Below, one piece after another: positions 1,320 through 7,128 of a stretch of 28,879 bases of DNA. Within the stretch, counting starts at the first letter, position 1; each line of letters starts with the position of its first letter. A program made the position numbers and the translations under genes. Source of the stretch: Escherichia phage Phi06_2987 S; sequence record KM389287.1; one strand, given 5' to 3'. Under the pieces are notes generated by a model. That model was not told the origin of the DNA. It ran no database searches and saw only the letters and a program-made list of their open reading frames with translations.

Positions 1320-2429
1320 GTGTATAAGTTCACGCTTATAACTGGGAAAAAGAAAACTCTCGGTTCGGATCGAGTAATGGCTATCGCCATCGCCCGAGAA
1401 TATAACCTGAGGATGCGCCCTGAAAATACACCATCGATAGATTCATTAATTCGGGAATCGGGAGGGCTGAATGGTGAAGCCCACCCGTTTTCTGAACATG
1501 TTGATCGCATTATGGAGAGAGCGATCAAAGATGAGCAGCCGTCTAAAAGCACACTTGACGATTGGAATAATGATGCCATCAGGGTTAAAGAATTTTTTAA
1601 TAACATACCCGCATGCGATATTGAGCTTGAGCACGTAAATGCCTACATACGAAATTACCATTCTGAATCGTCGGCCAATGTTCAGAACCGAAAAGTTAGC
1701 TTCCTGAAAAAGCTATTCTCTTATGCTGTTGATGAATCGCTAATGATGGATAACCCTGCAACACGGAAAAAAATGCGGCGTGTCGATAAAAAGGTCCGCC
1801 GGCGACTCACTTTGGAACAGTTCTTGGCCATACATGCAGCTGCTGAACCTTGGCTGAAGACTGCAATGGACCTTGCCATACAAACTACGCAAGCGCGCCT
1901 GGAAGTTTCCCGGATCCGGTACTCGATCAAGGAACCTCAAGAAGGGGTTTGCGGCTGTGTATGGTTCGATCAGGAGGAGGCTGGCATATTCGGAACGCTT
2001 TACATTCACCGGCAAAAAGTGCAGCACAAAGAGGCTTCACACGTCGCTATTCCGATCGGCAGGGCCCTGAAAGAGATCATCGACAACAGCAGAGACAATG
2101 TGGCCAGTCCTTATGTTGTTCACCGGCTTCTGGAAAAGAGAAGCAATCCGATAAGTAAGGAAGTTAACCACCCAACACAGGTGGCCCCTGATTATTTGAG
2201 CAGGGCATTTTCAGAGCTGCGGGACCGGATAGGTGTAGCGGCAGAATTACCTATCAAAGAAAGGCCAACTTTCCACGAAATTAGAGCGCTGGCGGCTCAT
2301 ATTTTCGAAAGACAAGGTATCGATCCGCAGGCAAGGATGGCCCATAGTGATGCAAAATCGACAAAAATTTATACCCAGAATCATGTTGAATGGGTTGAAG
2401 TACCACATGCAGAAATAAAAATGGCATAG
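1320..2429 (+). CDS. int: tyrosine integrase (lambda Int family); N-terminal arm-binding segment lies in another frame from ATG 1249
   Basis: 369-aa ORF from GTG 1320 with a tyrosine-recombinase C-terminal region. The ATG at 1249 encodes MAARPRKKEYRHLPDYLF, which matches the integrase N-terminal arm-binding consensus but hits a stop at 1339. The two frames join only if the T7 run at 1298-1304 were T8. Confidence 0.9.
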   Translation: MYKFTLITGKKKTLGSDRVMAIAIAREYNLRMRPENTPSIDSLIRESGGLNGEAHPFSEHVDRIMERAIKDEQPSKSTLDDWNNDAIRVKEFFNNIPACDIELEHVNAYIRNYHSESSANVQNRKVSFLKKLFSYAVDESLMMDNPATRKKMRRVDKKVRRRLTLEQFLAIHAAAEPWLKTAMDLAIQTTQARLEVSRIRYSIKEPQEGVCGCVWFDQEEAGIFGTLYIHRQKVQHKEASHVAIPIGRALKEIIDNSRDNVASPYVVHRLLEKRSNPISKEVNHPTQVAPDYLSRAFSELRDRIGVAAELPIKERPTFHEIRALAAHIFERQGIDPQARMAHSDAKSTKIYTQNHVEWVEVPHAEIKMA

Positions 2430-2430
2430 A

Positions 2431-2455
2431 AAAAGGCACCTGATGGTGCCTTGAA
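2431..2455 (+). terminator. hairpin just after the int stop (possible terminator)
   Basis: Perfect inverted repeat AAGGCACC-TGAT-GGTGCCTT straight after the int stop codon. There is no long T-run, so termination efficiency is uncertain. A related GGTGCC-containing motif recurs at about 2478-2495. Confidence 0.35.
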
Positions 2456-2551
2456 TAAAGTCTTGAATAAGACACCCGAAGGTGCCTTAAGTGGTTCTCT
2501 TAGCAACGAACTAAGAACGCCCACGCCTCATACCCATAATCATGAGCATCA

Positions 2552-2653
2552 AGGACTTTTGCGGATTTCCCACGTACCTTGCGGTAACGGCAGAAAACCC
2601 AACGGAACCCTTTTGGTGCCGCTTTCGAAGCGATAGATTTCAAACTCATTCAT
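2552..2653 (-). CDS. candidate small protein (33 aa) downstream of ImmA
   Basis: Hand-found ORF MNEFEIYRFESGTKRVPLGFLPLPQGTWEIRKSP preceded by a near-ideal Shine-Dalgarno (TAAGGAGGTG, 6 nt spacer, ATG). Too short for the track. Existence is unproven. Confidence 0.25.
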
Positions 2654-2807
2654 GTAACACCTCCTTACCAAGAGAGATTTTTCCCTTGAACATCTTCCCT
2701 GAAGGTGTTAGTTTCAGGCTGTCTATTGAAGCTGTTCACGGTGGTGACGCCTCTCGGATTCATCACCTTAAGACCCCTTGCATTGGTTGGCGCCAAGCAG
2801 GGGGTTT

Positions 2808-3329
2808 TTACATTTTGTCTAACTGATATCGTGCGGCCACTAATGATACTCCGCATGCCTCAGCTACATTTTCAGCACTCATACCTTTCAGAACATTGGC
2901 ATGAATAGCCGGTACTAATAGCTCACCACTGAAACATTTGGCTTGCCACTCACTACTCTCAAAAGGGCGGATTTTTACCCCTGGAGCAGAACGCGCGAAA
3001 GCAATGTTCCTGTGCATGAGAAGATGTCCCAGTTCATGTGCGGCAGTCATCCTGTCACGCCCTACCCCATTCAAAGCACCCTCGTAAATGTCTTCACGAA
3101 GAATCAATAAATGTTCCTGTGGGTAGGTGAGACCGTGCGTCTCCCCCATTTCCTTCATCCCACCGATATGGAGTTCAAAATCTGGGATCAACTGAGGCAA
3201 TGCGAACTCAATCACCTCCATAACAGGAAACATCAGACCTGTAATACCGAAGGTGCTCCGCAGAGATCTGACGATAGAACGTATTGATTCGCGGTTCTGC
3301 GGGGGTACACGATAATCTTGTCCGCTCAA
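2808..3329 (-). CDS. ImmA/IrrE-family zinc metallopeptidase
   Basis: 173-aa ORF with an HEXXH motif (AAHELGHLLMH). TTG start preceded by AGGAGG. It begins 8 nt after the XRE gene stop, so the pair is likely an operon. Confidence 0.8.
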   Translation of the reverse strand: MSGQDYRVPPQNRESIRSIVRSLRSTFGITGLMFPVMEVIEFALPQLIPDFELHIGGMKEMGETHGLTYPQEHLLILREDIYEGALNGVGRDRMTAAHELGHLLMHRNIAFARSAPGVKIRPFESSEWQAKCFSGELLVPAIHANVLKGMSAENVAEACGVSLVAARYQLDKM

Positions 3330-3337
3330 AATGCCTC

Positions 3338-3697
3338 CTACTGCTGTTTTCGATTCAAAATCTGTCGTAAATTCCGGAAGTCTTCTTCATTTAACTCATC
3401 AAAACTACGAGCGAACGCAATTGCGACTTCACGAGCATGGTCGTTCTTACCTGACAAGCTGATCTCTACTGATTGCTGAGAGTCACGAGCTGCACTGATA
3501 AGCTTTTCTTTTTGTTTTTCATCCGCATTCAGATAGCCAATGATGCTATCAAGCACGGGTTTAGTGACCGCCCTTTTACCAGTTTCGATTGCTGAAAGAT
3601 AAGACGAGGTCATACCCATAGCCTCAGCCATGCTTTTAAGCGTAAGCCCCAGGTCTATGCGCATTTTTCTTACTGTCTTACCAAACGGCGTTAACAT
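3338..3697 (-). CDS. XRE-family helix-turn-helix transcriptional regulator
   Basis: HTH signature LGLTLKSMAEAMGMTSSYLSAIETGKR. Start at 3697 (MLTPFGK...) chosen for a GGAG Shine-Dalgarno; the track ORF extends to 3745 without a ribosome-binding site. Confidence 0.8.
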   Translation of the reverse strand: MLTPFGKTVRKMRIDLGLTLKSMAEAMGMTSSYLSAIETGKRAVTKPVLDSIIGYLNADEKQKEKLISAARDSQQSVEISLSGKNDHAREVAIAFARSFDELNEEDFRNLRQILNRKQQ

Positions 3698-3769
3698 AGT
3701 TGTATCTCCAGTGTGTCCAAGACCCCCATTACTCTTGGGTCTCATTTTAAGTTAACACGCTCCCGACAG

Positions 3770-3819
3770 AAAATCAACAGAATTTTGTTGATTTCTTTCA
3801 TGTCGATTCGTTTACGAAT
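3770..3819. promoter_or_regulatory. palindromic operator candidates upstream of the XRE gene
   Basis: Perfect 7-2-7 palindrome GATTCGT-TT-ACGAATC at 3804-3819 and an imperfect inverted repeat AAATCAACAGAATTTTGTTGATTT at 3770-3793, both in the leader region of the XRE/ImmA operon. Confidence 0.3.
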
Positions 3820-3922
3820 CTTCAGTCTCGTGTTGATTGAAACGTAGGTTGTGTGAAGAAGTATGGGGAAAAACCAGCTGTAACCCATTGATGTGTATAG
3901 TGCGGATTTTGCAAAAAATGCA

Positions 3923-3938
3923 CTGTTTGCATATACAG
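3923..3938. promoter_or_regulatory. LexA (SOS) box candidate
   Basis: CTGTTTGCATATACAG fits CTGT-N8-ACAG with an AT-rich centre. It differs at one position from the box at 4731-4746. Confidence 0.5.
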
Positions 3939-3994
3939 TCAAATGTGTCGCAGCACCAGTATTTACAAGGGTTACAGCGGATTTATCGCAGTGA

Positions 3995-4040
3995 CATGGG
4001 GTGTCGGGGGTCGGAGGTTCAAATCCTCTCGTGCCGACCA
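3995..4040 (+). other. 3' portion (about 46 nt) of a tRNA-Pro gene; probable attP core
   Basis: CATGGGGTGTCGGGGGTCGGAGGTTCAAATCCTCTCGTGCCGACCA contains a T-arm (GGAGG-TTCAAAT-CCTCT), the acceptor 3' strand CGTGCCG, discriminator A and CCA. This matches my recollection of enterobacterial tRNA-Pro(UGG), including the Pro-specific G72 that implies a C1:G72 pair. No matching 5' acceptor strand or D-arm lies upstream, so it is a fragment. Confidence 0.7.
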
Positions 4041-4051
4041 AAAACACATTG

Positions 4052-4080
4052 AAAACCAGCCTCTTACGGCTGGTTTTTTT
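4052..4080 (+). terminator. rho-independent terminator following the tRNA fragment
   Basis: Stem CCAGCC / GGCTGG with loop TCTTAC, followed by T7. Confidence 0.7.
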
Positions 4081-4145
4081 ATGTTTGAAATTTGTACGGG
4101 GAATCATTGGGGAAAAATGGGGGAATAACTCCCGACATTTACACG

Positions 4146-4466
4146 CTACATTACAGGCGATTTATCGTCTTTAACTTGGTTAAGTGTATGTGTAAGAACG
4201 CCGTGTACCGTTACGTCATTCAAAGCTTCCCCTTCTATCGCTTCACCATCTTGAGTGATCAGCGCGTGGCCCATTAGCTTCACGAACTGGTTTCTCCCGT
4301 CCATGCTAACCAGCAACGTATCCCCTCCTTCTGGCTTAAGACTGACGTTTATAACGGCCCAGCCGCATGAAGTTTCAATAACCCGGCAGTTGTTATCTAC
4401 ACCGCAGATAACATCTATTGTCATGCGCTGCTCCTGGTAATCCATGGCTGGCGATGGAAACCCCAT
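4146..4466 (-). CDS. hypothetical protein (106 aa), second gene of a two-gene operon
   Basis: Track ORF whose start overlaps the stop of the upstream 79-aa ORF by 1 nt. No family recognised. Confidence 0.5.
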   Translation of the reverse strand: MGFPSPAMDYQEQRMTIDVICGVDNNCRVIETSCGWAVINVSLKPEGGDTLLVSMDGRNQFVKLMGHALITQDGEAIEGEALNDVTVHGVLTHTLNQVKDDKSPVM

Positions 4467-4705
4467 TAGAAAACCCTCCCCATGTTACGCAGGATCCAGT
4501 ATCGGTTCTCACTTCCGTTTGTCGTCTTATCGGCGAAGTCTGGCTGGTATCGTTCGATCCATGAATTTGCATCTGCCTGGCTGAAATGCCAGTGCCTCTC
4601 CTGCAGTTCAGCGATGAATCTGTCTGTATGCAGGCAGAGATAGCCCTTCGGGTTTTGCTGTATGGCCGCAATAAAAGCAGCACGAATATCCGGTTGACGA
4701 GGCAT
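4466..4705 (-). CDS. hypothetical protein (79 aa), first gene of a two-gene operon
   Basis: Track ORF with a GAGGG Shine-Dalgarno 7-8 nt upstream of the ATG. Its predicted promoter region overlaps the LexA box at 4729-4748. Confidence 0.5.
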   Translation of the reverse strand: MPRQPDIRAAFIAAIQQNPKGYLCLHTDRFIAELQERHWHFSQADANSWIERYQPDFADKTTNGSENRYWILRNMGRVF

Positions 4706-4726
4706 GAACGCACCCTCACTTGCTTA

Positions 4727-4756
4727 TTGACTGTATGCATATACAGTAGTATTTTT
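4727..4756 (+). promoter_or_regulatory. SOS-regulated promoter of the DinI-like gene (-35, LexA box, -10)
   Basis: TTGACT (-35, 4727-4732), 17-nt spacer, TATTTT (-10, 4750-4755). The LexA box gACTGTATGCATATACAGTa (4729-4748) overlaps the spacer. The gene 50 nt downstream is DinI-like, a classic LexA target. Confidence 0.6.
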
Positions 4757-4804
4757 ATGAAAACAGATCAAGCACAGGCAATTTTCACTTATGAGAGGAT
4801 CCGT

Positions 4805-5068
4805 ATGTTTGTTGAACTGGTTTATGACAAGCGAAATGTTGAGGGGCTCCAAGGGGCCAGAGAGATCATCCTGGCTGAACTAACGAAGCGGGTGCACCAG
4901 ATTTTTCCTGATGCCGAAGTGAAGGTAAAGCCGATGCAGGCGAACGGCTTAAATAGTGATGCCAGCAAAAGTGATCGGGAAAAGCTGAACCGTATGCTGG
5001 AGGAAATGTTTGATGAATCTGACATGTGGCTGACGTCTGAATTTCCAACTGTACGGCAGAATGGATAA
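4805..5068 (+). CDS. dinI: DinI-family (MsgA-like) DNA-damage-inducible protein
   Basis: 87-aa product MFVELVYDKRNVEGLQGAREIILAELTKRVHQIFPDAEVKV...DMWLTSE matches the DinI/MsgA pattern as I recall it. GAGAGGA ribosome-binding site upstream; the track ORF (from 4586) is over-extended at its 5' end. Confidence 0.85.
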   Translation: MFVELVYDKRNVEGLQGAREIILAELTKRVHQIFPDAEVKVKPMQANGLNSDASKSDREKLNRMLEEMFDESDMWLTSEFPTVRQNG

Positions 5069-5110: not shown

Positions 5111-5665
5111 TTAAGCCTGTCCCACCGGAAATTTTTTATAAAGCGTGCATACAGCGACATCATAAATTATTGCCACTTGTTTTCTATCCACGCCGTTTAA
5201 TATTAATCTCCCAGCTTGTGCCCATTGCTCGGGAGTTAATTTTGGACGTCTGCCACCTATTCGCCCTTTTTCCCGCGCCGCCGCTAATCCAGCCCGGGTG
5301 CGTTCGACGATTAACTCTCTTTCCATTTCCGCCAGCGCTGACATGATGTGAAATATAAAACGCCCCATTGGACTTGATGTATCAATGCTGTCCGTGAGGC
5401 TCTTAAAGTGAATGCCCCGCTGTCGGAGTTCGTCCACCAGCAGCACTAAATTTCGCATGCTTCGCCCGAGGCGATCTAGTTTCCACACCACCAGTGTATC
5501 GCCCGCATTCAGAGTCCGCAGAAGCTTTTTGAGCGCTGGCCGGTTCGCTACCGTCCCGCTCATTTTTTCTTCAAAAACCTGTTCACATCCTGCGCGTTCG
5601 AGAGCTTGGCGCTGGAGATCTGTATTTTGGTCATTTGTTGACACTCTGACATAGCCAATTTGCAT
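5111..5665 (-). CDS. serine recombinase, DNA invertase (Gin/Pin/Hin/Cin/Min family)
   Basis: MQIGYVRVSTNDQNTDLQRQAL... is the canonical invertase N-terminus with the catalytic serine context; the C-terminal HTH region resembles Gin as I recall it. ATG at 5665 preferred over the upstream GTG at 5674. Confidence 0.9.
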   Translation of the reverse strand: MQIGYVRVSTNDQNTDLQRQALERAGCEQVFEEKMSGTVANRPALKKLLRTLNAGDTLVVWKLDRLGRSMRNLVLLVDELRQRGIHFKSLTDSIDTSSPMGRFIFHIMSALAEMERELIVERTRAGLAAAREKGRIGGRRPKLTPEQWAQAGRLILNGVDRKQVAIIYDVAVCTLYKKFPVGQA

Positions 5666-5699
5666 ATTTTTCACCCAATAAATTCTGCAAAAAAATCAG

Positions 5700-6533
5700 G
5701 TGAAGTTATCGGCCAGGCCGGCCCGTGGCAATCTATTAAACGTCGGTTTGGGAAGCAGCGCTACAAGGAACGCGTACAGCTCATCTGGCGATATACTTTC
5801 TGTAGGGGATTTGGGCTTGGGTGTTGTTGCCCCTGCCGAACAAAACCGTTACGAAAACGCGAGATTAAATGGCTTTTATAACATTGCCTCTGGTTCCGGC
5901 AACGGCCTGCCAACTAATGATGCGGGCTACGGTGTCTGGATGAACCGAAGCTCAAATTACGGCACCTTTGAGTGCTGGCTAAGTGGGCCTGTCGGGAGAA
6001 AAATGTTTAGCCAGGTTATAGGCGGAACAGCAGGTAAATGGTATGAATTTTACCATACAGCTAATACGACAAAAGCCAGTGACGGCACTATCAAAGCTGC
6101 CTCCCCCGTGGCACGAATTGTAACGAGCAAGGATGAGTGCCAGCGTGCTGATATAGCGGAGGATGGTTTTACCTGGTGCGGCTGCGGTGCGGCGAATGCC
6201 GAGGCTGAGGGCATTACTATTTCACGGCTTGATGTCGGCGTTTATGTTCTCACAGGTTCGGCAGGCCTGGCGTCTGAGGGATGGCAGTTACTTCCCCCAA
6301 TGGACCCTGGCGGCATGGGGGAACTGGGTGTAGTTGAGGCAGAGCAAACCGATAGCGGTGGGCTGACTATCCGTCTGTATAAACGCAAATACATCCTGAG
6401 CGATGAAGGTGAAATCATCAAAACCAAAGGTGAACCGATGGACGTACCGGCGAACAGCTGGATCGATGTTCGCTTGGATATGCCCGCAGATTCACTGTTT
6501 AACCAGCGGATGAGCCAGAAGCCGGAGATTTAG
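5700..6533 (+). CDS. alternative tail fiber C-terminal cassette C (likely start-less in this orientation)
   Basis: From site 1 the frame reads ...NVGLGSSATRNAY..., parallel to ...NLGLGSSATKDVG... at the crossover point in the expressed tail fiber. Its C-terminus (VPANSWIDVRLDMPADSLFNQ) and an internal block (TANTTKASDGTIKAASPV) are homologous to cassette A. The ATG at 5700 is probably fortuitous. Confidence 0.65.
   Translation: MKLSARPARGNLLNVGLGSSATRNAYSSSGDILSVGDLGLGVVAPAEQNRYENARLNGFYNIASGSGNGLPTNDAGYGVWMNRSSNYGTFECWLSGPVGRKMFSQVIGGTAGKWYEFYHTANTTKASDGTIKAASPVARIVTSKDECQRADIAEDGFTWCGCGAANAEAEGITISRLDVGVYVLTGSAGLASEGWQLLPPMDPGGMGELGVVEAEQTDSGGLTIRLYKRKYILSDEGEIIKTKGEPMDVPANSWIDVRLDMPADSLFNQRMSQKPEI
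5731..5756. other. invertase crossover site 1 (gix-like), inverted relative to sites 2 and 3
   Basis: ATCTATTAAACG-TC-GGTTTGGGAAGC. Its reverse complement shares cTTCC(c/t)AAACC-GA with sites 2 and 3. It lies 78 bp upstream of the invertase start, at the 5' end of cassette C. Confidence 0.65.
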
Positions 6534-7128
6534 CGTCGCCCTCTAATGCGCTGACGCGGATTGCCAGCTCTTTGATTGCCGCCAGCGCATCGAGCACCAG
6601 AGGATTGAGGTCTAGGGTCATTTTCCCCGACTCCTCAGCCGAGTGAACATATTGCGGATCTATCTTTTCCAGTTCCTGAGCAACAACACCTCGGCGTATC
6701 GTTTTCTCTTCATCAGCAAGGTAGTAGAAGGTCTTAAAATCCATTGCCACGATGTTGGCCAGAGACACTTCTAAATTAAGTTCTCCAGTAACCTTCTTGA
6801 AATTTATGTCCGATGTACCTGCAGACTGCAGCTGCGCCCACGGCACTGATGATTTTGGTGTTTGAGGGTCAGTGGTTGTTAGAAAACGGCTGAATACCGC
6901 ACTACCGTAAGTAATCCACAGCTGCGCAATTCGCTGCTCGGTGTAGGAACTCTGAAACCCACAGCCATTCGTAGGAGCCCACAGAGTATTGCCATCAGCA
7001 TCACTGATGAAGGATGAACTGGCATCTGTGGGCTTATTTTGGAGAACAGCACCAACCCCAAAAGCTCCCACCTGCATAACATTCCCTGCCGCAGTTCCGA
7101 CATCCTTTGTCGCACTACTTCCTAAACC
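6499..7128 (-). CDS. alternative tail fiber C-terminal cassette B with a peptidase S74-like intramolecular chaperone domain; no start codon of its own
   Basis: The frame is open from crossover site 2 (…KVGLGSSATKDVGTAAGNVMQVGAFGVGA…), with an in-frame TGA immediately upstream and no ATG before the shared motif. The C-terminal part (FKTFYYLADEEKTIRRGVVAQELEKIDPQYVH...LVLDALAAIKELAIRVSALEG) resembles the auto-cleaving chaperone domain of phage fibers and spikes. The track ORF is 6499..7077. Confidence 0.6.
   Translation of the reverse strand, partial: GLGSSATKDVGTAAGNVMQVGAFGVGAVLQNKPTDASSSFISDADGNTLWAPTNGCGFQSSYTEQRIAQLWITYGSAVFSRFLTTTDPQTPKSSVPWAQLQSAGTSDINFKKVTGELNLEVSLANIVAMDFKTFYYLADEEKTIRRGVVAQELEKIDPQYVHSAEESGKMTLDLNPLVLDALAAIKELAIRVSALEGDAKSPASGSSAG

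Follow-up and report, generated by a model that had tools for sequence, protein, structure and literature searches.

A mobile phage cassette joins an XRE repressor and a GAF-less ImmA-type peptidase to a structured RNA leader and a conserved small basic protein

The window analysed here is a stretch of 28,879 nucleotides from Escherichia phage Phi06_2987 S (KM389287.1). Positions 2430-3860 carry a cassette of approximately 1.4 kb made of an XRE repressor gene, an ImmA metallopeptidase gene, a structured RNA leader and a gene for a 49-residue protein, in that order. The XRE and ImmA genes are both on the minus strand. The initial annotation had described an HTH-XRE gene followed 8 nt later by an HEXXH metallopeptidase, located between int and attP. 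Both points were borne out: the XRE stop codon (TAG, 3338-3340) is separated from the ImmA start by 8 nt (3330-3337), the two products matched Pfam HTH_3/HTH_31 and PF06114, and the pair lies between int (1320-2429, plus strand, convergent with the cassette) and the attP core (around 3986-4036). Two GC-rich hairpins, terminator-like and bidirectional in appearance, are found between int and the small gene (2433-2452 and 2469-2488); judging by their sequence, they look like terminators closing both the int and the cassette transcription units. On its upstream side the pair has only the attP arm as a neighbour, and no gene diverges from the XRE promoter.

The XRE-family repressor (3338-3697, minus strand) is 119 residues long and matched HTH_3 and HTH_31 with E values of about 1e-10. 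Its HTH spans residues 5-62 and precedes a C-terminal domain resembling that of CapH, in which the motif F95-A96-R97 is conserved. The PADLOC capH profile aligned to the protein over positions 3-97 of 103 (E 4.2e-10), and the protein was assigned on these matches to the CapH-type repressors, which combine an HTH with a C-terminal oligomerisation domain. CapH is cut at F82|R83, and the F95-A96-R97 motif is a candidate site for a cut by ImmA in XRE. A longer XRE reading frame starting at ATG 3745 was rejected as the gene because an indel breaks the frame in L003, an 89.5%-identical copy of the cassette.

The second gene (2808-3329, minus strand, TTG start at 3329) encodes an ImmA/IrrE (M78) zinc metallopeptidase of 173 residues, which matched the Peptidase_M78 family (PF06114) with an E value of 3.6e-9 and a score of 36.9 bits (curated cutoff 22). 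The HELGH zinc motif lies at 3024-3038 and E127 is the third zinc ligand; H98, E99, H102 and E127 did not vary among 26 homologues. Decay of the peptidase gene into a pseudogene had been raised as a possibility and was ruled out by the finding that ImmA is intact and conserved. CapP was the closest relative in several comparisons, including the PADLOC capP profile (E 1e-10) and a profile comparison with the CapP structure 7t5t (E 7.8e-14), in which the alignment stops at residue 179 of 291. An AF2 model of ImmA (pLDDT 92.6) had CapP 7t5t (E 2.6e-5) and IrrE 3dti (E 1e-3) as its best PDB matches, and the modelled fold is a peptidase with an HTH-like subdomain, as in solved M78 members. CapP and IrrE sense ssDNA through their GAF domain, which forms the binding groove together with the peptidase domain. 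At 173 residues, the ImmA described here has neither a GAF domain nor the three-domain architecture of CapP, and no cysteine is present from the HExxH motif to E127. Homology to ImmR/ImmA, DdrO/IrrE and CapH/CapP supports the earlier suggestion that the pair belongs to the class of protease-controlled derepression switches.

Downstream of ImmA, the minus strand encodes a basic protein of 49 residues (2500-2649, ATG at 2649; MSLKSIASKAAPKGFRWVFCRYRKVRGKSAKVLDAHDYGYEAWAFLVRC). Compared with L003, this frame contained 13 synonymous and 2 non-synonymous codon changes. The protein matched phrog_33859 (E 1.5e-26), a PHROG of unknown function and its sole match; nothing was found in Pfam, NCBIfam, PADLOC or PDB, and its model (pLDDT 90) had no structural match. 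A likeness to RppH was discarded, being confined to the N-terminal strands and non-significant (PDB profile E 0.1). None of 41 family members matched DUF2188, DUF3892 or any other Pfam family significantly, and an exhaustive profile search found no domain fusions. The predicted pI is 10.1, and the 49 residues include 11 lysines and arginines and 8 aromatic residues. The initial annotation had instead pointed to a 33-codon ORF with strong ribosome binding. The GGAGG stood, but the reading frame did not: the conserved gene starts 4 nt later than the out-of-frame ATG at 2651-2653, from which the ORF runs for 34 codons in this phage and ends at 2552. The 34-residue frame had no match in Pfam, NCBIfam or PADLOC, and was ruled out as a gene by its substitution pattern and its variable length in relatives. 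An ATG at -4 or -7 is nevertheless retained in about 40 of 52 gamma-type leaders, where it opens ORFs of 4-34 codons.

The three genes keep their order in distant loci. When 26,528 six-frame segments taken from 84 loci were searched with an iterated profile, the small protein was matched 43 times, always on the same strand and just downstream of ImmA, and tblastn detected an XRE homologue in 60 of the 84 loci, nearly always ending directly upstream of the ImmA match. With viral contigs included, 114 of 131 small-protein matches adjoin ImmA, and the family comprises more than 100 representative clusters. The viral relatives were found by an alignment-based scan of viral contigs; tblastn of the 49-residue protein against the phage collection gave no match, probably as a result of the short query. 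Across several phyla, the small gene lies 3' of ImmA homologues in most related loci; the loci of Yersinia, Aeromonas and V. cholerae contain it as well, though gene calling has often passed it over there. Its conservation far exceeds that of its neighbours (66-83% identity versus 29-44% for ImmA). Identities to the window for XRE, ImmA and the small protein were 37%, 29% and 78% in Vibrio, 34%, 44% and 83% in Lysobacter, and 35%, 37% and 68% in Acinetobacter. Between the mEp237-like lambdoid phage of this window, Yersinia, a P2-like prophage of V. cholerae with an S24 repressor and the nin region of an Aeromonas lambdoid prophage, the small protein is 70-96% identical. A 58-residue variant occurs without XRE and ImmA in about 15 viral loci, indicating that the small protein is workable under other control and that the three genes are not obligately linked. 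At locus L151, the variant has a KilA-N protein and a repressor of CI(S24) type as neighbours. The alpha-type small ORF has the sequence PPGYRYVFRPWR...

The interval between ImmA and the small gene is occupied by a structured RNA leader of about 160 nt (2650-2807, minus strand). Helices H1 (2804-2797 with 2781-2774), H2 (2767-2761 with 2749-2743) and H3 (2718-2713 with 2703-2698) covary. Helix H4 (2691-2687 with 2652-2648) covers the start codons, and in H5 (2678-2673 with 2664-2659) an anti-SD pairs with the SD GGAGGT, so that the SD and the start codon are both base-paired in the consensus fold. Across the helix alignment, 94.6% of cells were paired. Double-sided changes, counted on an alignment fitted to the model, amounted to 152 cells against 40.9 ± 5.3 in shuffled alignments (0 of 500 as high) and at most 36 in slid controls. 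The SD region was also paired in the single-sequence minimum-free-energy fold (z -2.45), with other partners. Rfam covariance models returned nothing at E ≤ 1 in positions 2400-4800.

Upstream of XRE, a putative operon promoter was placed at 3749-3777 on the minus strand, with the -35 TTGATT at 3777-3772, a spacer of 17 nt and a TGn-TAACTT extended -10 at 3757-3749; the start of transcription, as read from the sequence, would lie near 3742. Since a sigma-70 consensus scan called no promoter in 2400-4150, we infer both this promoter and the absence of one specific to the small gene. The operon promoter is weak against the consensus. Both hexamers are kept in L003, where the sequence around them is 79-83% identical. 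The 5' UTR begins with a hairpin (AGACCC...GGGTCT, 3720-3742, minus strand) that reads AGACCT...AGGTCT in L003, with compensatory changes on both sides of the stem. The palindromes that the initial annotation had noted upstream of the module were confirmed. Operator-like palindrome O1 (3773-3792, minus strand) is a perfect ATCAACA-N6-TGTTGAT and overlaps the putative -35; O2 (3818-3837, minus strand; ATCTTCAG..TGTTGAT) lies 45 bp from O1 and has 2 mismatches to the O1 consensus. The O1 half-sites are mostly retained in L003, with diverged flanks. O1 and O2 were the only 20-22 bp palindromes of this type and quality in the 28.9-kb window, which is part of the phage and leaves room for XRE targets beyond it. 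Operators were thus found only at the cassette's own promoter, and the sole conserved candidate output in these 28.9 kb therefore lies within the operon.

The LexA-like box mentioned alongside the palindromes also exists, as a perfect box at 3923-3938 (CTGTTTGCATATACAG), 226 nt upstream of the XRE start and about 170 nt upstream of the putative -10, but it did not hold up as a part of the module. It is located outside the cassette, in the attP arm, and is present in the module-free CX21 prophage; regulation of the module by this box was rejected. The only LexA boxes found were this one and another at 4731-4746, and none is in the operon promoter. The attP core (3986-4036, plus strand) consists of the last 48 nt of the tRNA-Pro gene proL followed by AAA and is likewise outside the cassette. 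Its P-O-P' form in the window is that of an excised phage. ARAGORN found no tRNA, and what resembles one is just the att core, which corresponds to the 3' half of proL.

Comparison with relatives indicated that the cassette is mobile and dispensable. In CX21, an otherwise similar prophage, and in HK225, the cassette is absent and int is directly beside att; both are complete phages that excise and integrate without the module. Conversely, IPCEC31, a different prophage, carries the unit at 2466-3871 with 89.5% identity. Its neighbours vary between Klebsiella, Yersinia, Vibrio and Aeromonas, and in 47 of 80 viral contigs the cassette lies within 3 kb of the contig end. A near-identical prophage, ST536, has a LexA-type CI and Cro about 7 kb away. 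The earlier remark that this is not the usual immunity arrangement was thereby upheld, and a role as the main immunity region was excluded by the CI/Cro of ST536 and the module-free CX21 and HK225. The proposed link to adjacent defence cargo was not: no known defence gene adjoins the module in this window. The cassette is an autonomous accessory unit that occupies the int-attP interval of a temperate phage of the lambdoid, mEp237/HK225-like type, and it is probably transcribed as one operon.

Several characterised systems resemble parts of this arrangement. In the ImmR/ImmA systems of ICEBs1 and Bacillus phage phi105, an XRE gene likewise precedes a short (about 170 residues), GAF-less M78 protease in the same operon with int nearby, and the repressor is presumably autoregulated, as here. 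In ICEBs1, a single operon of immR, immA and int runs divergently from xis, with the switch governing excision and transfer. Here, by contrast, int is convergent, nothing is divergent, downstream of the protease come a structured leader and a conserved small gene, and the cassette is dispensable for the phage; no divergent xis/int or transfer promoter under XRE control, of the ICEBs1 kind, was found. In Deinococcus, the M78 protease IrrE (PprI), the second-best structural match of ImmA here, cuts the C-terminal dimerisation domain of the XRE protein DdrO after DNA damage. That pair differs in controlling a chromosomal global regulon, in the HTH and GAF domains of IrrE and in that its two genes do not sit together in an operon with a small output gene. 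In both sequence and structure, the best matches were to CapH/CapP, which regulate CBASS and further defence operons (Lau et al. 2022; Calloji et al. 2026). CapH shares with the XRE protein an HTH, a C-terminal helical oligomerisation domain and a Phe/Arg motif (here F95-A96-R97). CapP, however, has 288 residues, a GAF domain in its ssDNA groove and often a cysteine switch, whereas the 173-residue ImmA has none of these, and CapH/CapP lie upstream of their target operon on the opposite strand whereas the candidate target here is downstream on the same strand. From its sequence relationships, we infer that the switch is a variant of the ImmR/ImmA and CapH/CapP kind.

Other XRE-containing modules already involve small or toxic partners. 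HTH/M78 pairs have been tied to small DUF2188/DUF3892 proteins with a suspected role in defence (Burroughs & Aravind 2020, as cited in Lau et al. 2022); those operons differ from the present one in orientation and with respect to the RNA leader. RosmerTA (RmrT/RmrA) and PD-lambda-2 combine an XRE and M78 module with a toxic partner and give phage defence. In these systems XRE and M78 are fused (about 370-400 residues) and a larger toxin, HigB-like in PD-lambda-2, lies upstream, unlike the separate proteins, the downstream 49-residue protein and the lack of an upstream toxin gene here. In the TF-smORF modules of linear plasmid-like and some further temperate phages (Silpe et al. 2023), an XRE-type factor controls a small protein within a prophage accessory module. 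That factor is an activator acting with no protease, and its smORF is divergent, phage-specific, without homologues and directed at cI; the small protein described here, by contrast, is shared by several phyla and encoded co-directionally.

Collectively, the small protein is probably what the switch controls. Because neither a structural match nor a functionally characterised homologue was found for it, its role as an effector is deduced solely from genomic context. We propose an autorepressed XRE/ImmA switch with a leader-gated small output, a scheme that as a whole we regard as being as probable as its negation. The promoter under the two palindromic operators would drive XRE, XRE would repress its own promoter, and in the lysogen this autorepression would hold the operon low. 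The small protein would be held lower still, because the leader sequesters its SD and start codon in base pairs and the out-of-frame ATG sits at the best SD distance. Stress, for instance from DNA damage or superinfection by a phage, may then activate ImmA, which would cut XRE in its C-terminal oligomerisation domain, possibly at the Phe-Ala-Arg motif. Once XRE is cut, the operon would be derepressed and the small protein would build up, assuming that co-transcription reads through hairpin H1. The small protein may act on a highly conserved cell target, most plausibly nucleic acid or a core machine, and the outcome could be growth arrest or interference with the incoming phage, from which the prophage or the host would gain.

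Two alternatives assign the small protein another partner. It could be an antirepressor, with ImmA removing XRE and the small protein inactivating the phage CI so that the prophage is induced. Small prophage proteins under XRE-type control that inactivate cI without proteolysis are known (PMC10432266), the cassette is carried by temperate phages, and the L151 variant adjoins a CI-type repressor. We nevertheless consider this unlikely: the known smORF antirepressors are phage-specific and without homologues (PMC10432266), whereas this protein is 70-96% identical in dissimilar prophages, whose repressors cannot all be one target; moreover, the gene order is co-directional rather than divergent, and the cassette-free relatives are complete phages. 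The small protein might also be a partner of ImmA, either a sensor or activator (for example a binder of single-stranded nucleic acid replacing the GAF domain) or an inhibitor, with the targets of XRE located elsewhere. In keeping with such a role, this ImmA ends before the GAF domain that CapP and IrrE use for their ssDNA groove, the small protein is tightly linked to GAF-less ImmA proteins, and it has the basic, aromatic-rich composition often seen in proteins that bind nucleic acids. A partner would, however, be expected to co-vary with ImmA, while the small protein is near-invariant and ImmA diverges; it occurs also without ImmA, no further operator sites are present in the window, heavy translational silencing would not be expected for an activation sensor, and movement between unrelated contexts favours a self-contained output. 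A partner role for the small protein therefore appears improbable to us.

Two further readings leave the small gene and its leader aside. The pair could be an ordinary two-gene regulator of the ImmR/ImmA or CapH/CapP type acting on int/xis or nearby cargo, the small ORF and leader being incidental. The pair does adjoin int, and ImmR/ImmA and CapH/CapP govern ICEBs1 excision and adjacent defence operons, respectively. Yet int is convergent and beyond the two terminator-like hairpins, nothing but attP lies divergent from the XRE promoter although CapH/CapP-controlled operons are always divergent, and neighbours vary among loci while the small gene and the leader keep substitutions of the coding and covariation type. 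We rate such a regulator as decidedly unlikely. The other reading, which we hold to be highly improbable, is an Xre-COG2856 type II toxin-antitoxin system, with the protease as toxin and XRE as antitoxin stabilising the prophage. Makarova et al. 2009 list Xre-COG2856 as TA-like and predict a three-component system, whose third part was not identified there; the Brucella BAB1_0270 pair, with proteins of the same sizes (118 and 182 residues), is treated as a TA system; and ImmA has weak matches to RmrA of RosmerTA. Against this, the characterised ImmA, IrrE and CapP proteins are specific repressor-cleaving proteases, not toxins, the RmrA profile matches cover only about 50 residues around the HExxH of a fused protein, and the conserved small gene and leader are left unexplained.

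The proposed leader-gated switch could extend well beyond this phage. An XRE repressor, a GAF-less ImmA, a leader RNA and a small basic protein may form a widespread, unrecognised tripartite system in which a repressor-cleaving protease releases a tiny effector of a new class, with at least two families (phrog_33859-like and phrog_21154-like), a reading to which we give slightly less than even confidence. We put forward equally tentatively that a new cis-regulatory RNA motif gates this effector and that the effector is the third component of Makarova et al. 2009. Loci of the set, for the most part prophage-borne, come from Proteobacteria, Clostridia, Chloroflexia and Spirochaetes. Few gene pairs occur more often in prophages and mobile elements than XRE/ImmA, and such pairs are usually annotated and then ignored, or filed as two-gene TA systems such as the virulence-linked ZnMP/Xre pair of Brucella. 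If the small gene is the output, many such pairs have been read with the effector left out, its gene being one that gene callers often overlook; the extreme conservation of this small-protein family would point to a core cellular or nucleic-acid target; bacterial cis-regulators would gain a new structured leader RNA; and the third-component prediction of 2009 would be directly testable in a 1.4-kb E. coli cassette. The cassette also shows cleanly how the int-att junction can house an accessory ("moron") locus.

We are highly confident of the anatomy of the cassette: three genes and a structured leader, forming an accessory and mobile unit. The XRE gene (3338-3697, minus strand) encodes 119 aa, the same length as in RefSeq, and matched HTH_3 and HTH_31 in Pfam (E about 1e-10). 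Its stop codon overlaps a GGAGG, and 8 nt further on lies the TTG start (3329) of an ImmA-type protease gene (2808-3329, minus strand; 173 aa), assigned to Peptidase_M78/IrrE by PF06114 (36.9 bits, cutoff 22). The HELGH motif is encoded at 3024-3038 (minus strand), and residues H98, E99, H102 and E127 were invariant when 26 homologues, the most distant with 41% identity, were aligned. The N-terminus MSGQDYRVPP was kept in the same alignment, confirming the TTG start. Thauera CapP was the best solved relative in the profile search (E 7.8e-14), followed by IrrE, and both were the best structural matches of an AlphaFold model (pLDDT 92.6). The coordinates and Pfam matches bear out the initial annotation, which described an XRE gene followed 8 nt later by an HEXXH protease of the ImmA/IrrE type; the profile searches it had suggested returned HTH_3/HTH_31 and capH for XRE, and PF06114, CapP and IrrE for the protease. 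A longer ORF starting at ATG 3745 was rejected as the XRE gene because an indel breaks its frame in the E. coli IPCEC31 copy of the unit (L003; 89.5% identity).

Comparison with CapH/CapP revealed both likeness and difference. XRE matched the PADLOC capH profile end to end. The protease alignment ends at CapP residue 179 of 291, so that the GAF domain is absent here; CapP and IrrE bind ssDNA in the groove that separates their peptidase domain from the GAF domain. Many CapP proteins carry a cysteine-switch loop gating the active site, whereas no cysteine was found between HExxH and E127. The protease architecture is therefore of the ImmA type. CapH is cut at F82|R83 and the R83A substitution blocks cleavage. 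The best-conserved XRE motif outside the HTH was F95-A96-R97 (81%, 93% and 95% across 107 distinct family members), which we propose as a candidate cleavage site for the protease. Between the window and L003, XRE is 96.7% identical, ImmA 88.5% and the small gene 89.3%; the higher value for XRE suggests recombination within the cassette or tighter constraint on XRE.

The small gene (2500-2649, minus strand) has 49 codons starting at ATG 2649. The small ORF reported earlier downstream of ImmA was in the wrong frame: it starts at ATG 2653, 6 nt past GGAGGTG, and has 34 codons in the window, ATG 2649 lying 4 nt downstream. Of the 15 codons that differ from L003 in the 49-aa frame, 13 have synonymous and 2 have non-synonymous substitutions; read in the other frame, the same substitutions affect roughly half of residues 1-13. 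The 88 distinct leaders frequently had an out-of-frame ATG 4 or 7 nt 5' of the true start, and it was kept in about 40 of the 52 gamma-proteobacterial ones. Since the length of its open frame varies from 4 to 34 codons, this ORF is no conserved protein; the substitution pattern and the variable frame length rule it out, and the start codon alone is conserved. This ATG may be a decoy start, or just part of H4, the helix over the start codons.

The 49-aa protein is basic (pI 10.1, 11 Lys+Arg), contains 8 aromatic residues and has no hydrophobic segment. An AlphaFold2 model built with 25 homologues (pLDDT 90) predicted a small beta-sheet (strands 15-24, 32-34 and 43-48) and one short helix. The protein matched phrog_33859 (function unknown) over its full length (E 1.5e-26), and RefSeq annotates it in L003. 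The protein and 40 relatives had no match in Pfam, NCBIfam or PADLOC. When 1.84 billion representative proteins were searched exhaustively with a profile, 110 clusters were retrieved, all small stand-alone proteins and none an informative fusion; source names were all "hypothetical protein". The degree to which the 49-aa protein is conserved, its charge and its aromatic residues suggest that it acts on a conserved nucleic acid or core machinery.

The three genes are linked in most loci. A genome-wide scan with the ImmA alignment gave 80 loci; of the 84 loci searched for XRE, 60 had an XRE homologue, nearly always ending directly 5' of the ImmA match. Searching with the 49-aa protein (tblastn) identified 19 loci, always on the same strand and 130-250 nt downstream of ImmA. 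An iterated profile search of 26,528 six-frame segments from ImmA loci found 43 small-protein matches, all on the same strand just 3' of ImmA and none elsewhere. When the earlier loci were pooled with 80 viral contigs that the small protein had retrieved, ImmA adjoined 114 of 131 small-protein genes. The small-protein matches come from Enterobacterales, Vibrio, Acinetobacter, Pseudomonas, Lysobacter, many alpha-proteobacteria, Clostridia, a Chloroflexia MAG, a spirochaete MAG and E. coli phage LLS. XRE and ImmA are far less conserved than the small protein: identities to the window for XRE, ImmA and the small protein were 70%, 64% and 96% in Escherichia sp. ESNIH1, 37%, 29% and 78% in Vibrio, 34%, 44% and 83% in Lysobacter, and 35%, 37% and 68% in Acinetobacter.

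The post-ImmA position was occupied in 11 loci by small basic ORFs of another family, phrog_21154, which has no known function and carries the motif VxVRxYxRxRxGxWExVxxHxRS (L020, L025, L039, L051, L064, L071, L015, L054, L144, L146 and L147), in 5 of them in tandem after a first-family ORF. About 15 viral loci (among L149-L165) carried a 58-aa first-family variant without XRE/ImmA, preceded at 156 nt by a 188-aa phrog_2602 protein (function unknown), as in L151 (5278-6177). Neighbours of this variant include a CI(S24)-type repressor and a KilA-N protein, and the leader model R1 had no match at these loci.

The distance between the ImmA stop and the small-gene start has a median of 157 nt. In the window this spacer is 93.6% identical to that of L003, compared with 88.5% for ImmA and 77-83% for the cassette flanks. 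Alignments revealed three hairpins with compensatory changes in the stems and constant loops: H1, directly 3' of the ImmA stop codon; H2, with the loop CCNAGAGG; and H3, with the loop UAACACC and the stem CCUGAA/UUCAGG in the window, CCCGAA/UUCGGG in Klebsiella and AUGUAG/CUACAU in Vibrio. RNAalifold added two helices, one pairing the Shine-Dalgarno sequence GGAGGU with AUCUCU, the other pairing GUUCA with UGAAU across both start codons. A single-sequence fold recovered H1-H3 and again paired the Shine-Dalgarno region, with other partners (z = -2.45). H1 has no U-tract and was not called by the terminator scan, so read-through is assumed.

With a covariance model derived from seven sequences, leaders were detected in 31 cases among 93 loci, and the window had a single site (2647-2809); Rfam had no match to the leader. 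In the resulting alignment 94.6% of cells were paired, a percentage inflated by fitting the alignment to the model. Cells changed on both sides numbered 152, against 40.9 +/- 5.3 in shuffles (0 of 500 reached 152) and at most 36 in slid-partner controls. Because the slid controls stay low, we argue that the covariation signal is real despite the model-fitted alignment. All pairs of H1 and H2 and 5 of 6 in H3 covary; the anti-Shine-Dalgarno helix is invariant and therefore uninformative in this respect. Alpha-proteobacterial, clostridial and Chloroflexia leaders (L019, L022, L024, L028-L044 and L065) keep a [T/G]CAAG about 25-30 nt 5' of the small-gene start, with otherwise no detectable sequence in common with the E. 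coli leader.

The palindromes noted upstream of XRE proved to be two copies of an operator-like ATCAACA-N6-TGTTGAT, one perfect (3773-3792) and one with two mismatches (3818-3837). The sole further match in the window has three mismatches, which is chance level. The perfect copy overlaps the TTGATT (3777-3772) of a putative promoter, separated by 17 nt from TGn-TAACTT (3757-3749). A consensus promoter scan did not call this promoter; both hexamers are kept in L003, in a region about 80% identical overall. The transcript is predicted to begin at a hairpin (3720-3742) that has a compensatory change in L003. The leader contains no operator copy, and there is therefore no evident XRE-controlled promoter for the small gene alone. 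On the other side, the integrase gene (1320-2429, plus strand) converges with the XRE/ImmA pair, and GC-rich hairpins (2433-2452 and 2469-2488) lie between it and the cassette.

No tRNA was called in the window. Alignment with E. coli K-12 identified about 3986-4036 as the last 48 nt of the tRNA-Pro gene proL plus AAA. The ST536 prophage, which sits at proL, tracks the window up to this core and then continues into yejO, while the window runs into phage genes; the window is thus the P-O-P' form, and the attP proposed by the initial annotation is upheld. The LexA-like box reported upstream of the module exists as a perfect box, CTGTTTGCATATACAG (3923-3938), one of two in the window (0.26 expected by chance). 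It was rejected as a module part, because it lies in the att arm and is kept in CX21, a prophage without XRE/ImmA.

Several minor features were observed nearby. A weak promoter-like TTGCAA-N17-TATACA (plus strand, region 3909-4085) overlaps this box in the P arm and points into the tRNA-Pro 3' fragment, followed by a strong terminator (4051-4078); an SOS-controlled transcript of about 140 nt could cross the att core. In ST536, a RefSeq "hypothetical protein" (WP_487320636.1; L001 13313-13750) covers the att arm and the antisense tRNA fragment; its window counterpart, a 121-aa ORF (3742-4107, minus strand) through the tRNA-like core, looks like an annotation artefact. The second perfect LexA box (4731-4746) lies between divergent units (4146-5068): dinI (4805-5068, plus strand), and an operon of a phrog_3893 gene (4466-4705, minus strand) and a gene for a UmuD-like 106-aa protein (phrog_3469; 4146-4466, minus strand). 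The latter matches HumD/UmuD over the first 22-44 residues only, and is therefore truncated or highly diverged.

The cassette was present in 12 of 5,426 complete E. coli genomes. CX21 shares the exonuclease, int and att arm of the window with int directly next to the att arm, and in phage HK225 attP lies beside int. The unit (2466-3871) recurs, 89.5% identical, in the degraded IPCEC31 prophage next to a dinI pseudogene. The module was also found in Yersinia between prophage int and att, where the far side is either chromosome or a distinct island that has its own integrase and SIR2-HerA or AAA_15/21 genes; in V. cholerae at the edge of a P2-like element; in Aeromonas in a lambdoid nin-type region; and in Klebsiella with the end of a phage on one side and a P4-like element on the other. 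Every one of these loci carries the small ORF, often uncalled. No more than 3 kb separated the module from a contig end in 47 of the 80 viral contigs. In two Yersinia loci (L173 and L174), SIR2+HerA or AAA_15/AAA_21 islands stand in tandem, adjoining the XRE side of the module, which makes the att site a place where defence cargo stacks up. The view that the module is not the usual lambda-like immunity held: LexA-type CI, Cro and YmfL, the main immunity genes, lie about 7 kb from the cassette in ST536, and CX21 and HK225 have no module. Overall, what had been observed from the sequence was confirmed in part, and its interpretation gained partial support.

Whatever the host, prophage type or insertion site, nothing except the leader and the small gene was conserved together with the XRE/ImmA pair, and within the window operators occur only at the cassette's own promoter. 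We propose that the small gene would be silenced in layers, by autorepression, by pairing of its Shine-Dalgarno sequence and start codon, and by a competing out-of-frame start; on the simplest reading, the small protein would be the output of a self-contained, stress-triggered cassette. We judge this chain, taken as a whole, to be evenly poised between right and wrong. Four rivals were ranked against it. The foremost is that the small protein is an antirepressor; TF-smORF modules, by comparison, combine an activator with a divergent, phage-specific antirepressor. Next comes a role of the small protein as a protease cofactor or sensor. Lau et al. mention HTH/peptidase pairs associated with small DUF2188 or DUF3892 proteins, neither of which was matched by our family.

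Ranked third is the possibility that the XRE/ImmA pair is a plain regulator. CapH/CapP pairs are always divergent from the regulated operon (Lau et al.), unlike the arrangement here. The least favoured rival is a two-gene toxin-antitoxin system; RosmerTA and PD-lambda-2 have a fused XRE-peptidase with a larger toxin, whereas XRE and the protease are separate proteins here. The ZnMP/Xre pair of Brucella, whose two proteins have the same sizes as those here, continues to be regarded as a system of two genes, and Makarova et al. (2009) predicted Xre-COG2856 pairs in three-component systems with an unknown third part. The literature searched contained no description of the small protein or the leader RNA; the two are new with respect to the searched libraries and papers, and add to a known kind of switch.

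Beyond these features, the window consists of a lambdoid structural module that shares 92-95% identity with phages mEp237 and HK225. In the region 5111-7077, a serine invertase of the Hin/Gin type (5111-5674, minus strand) adjoins tail-fibre genes in opposite orientations, as in LLS and HK225; this is probably an invertible host-range switch.
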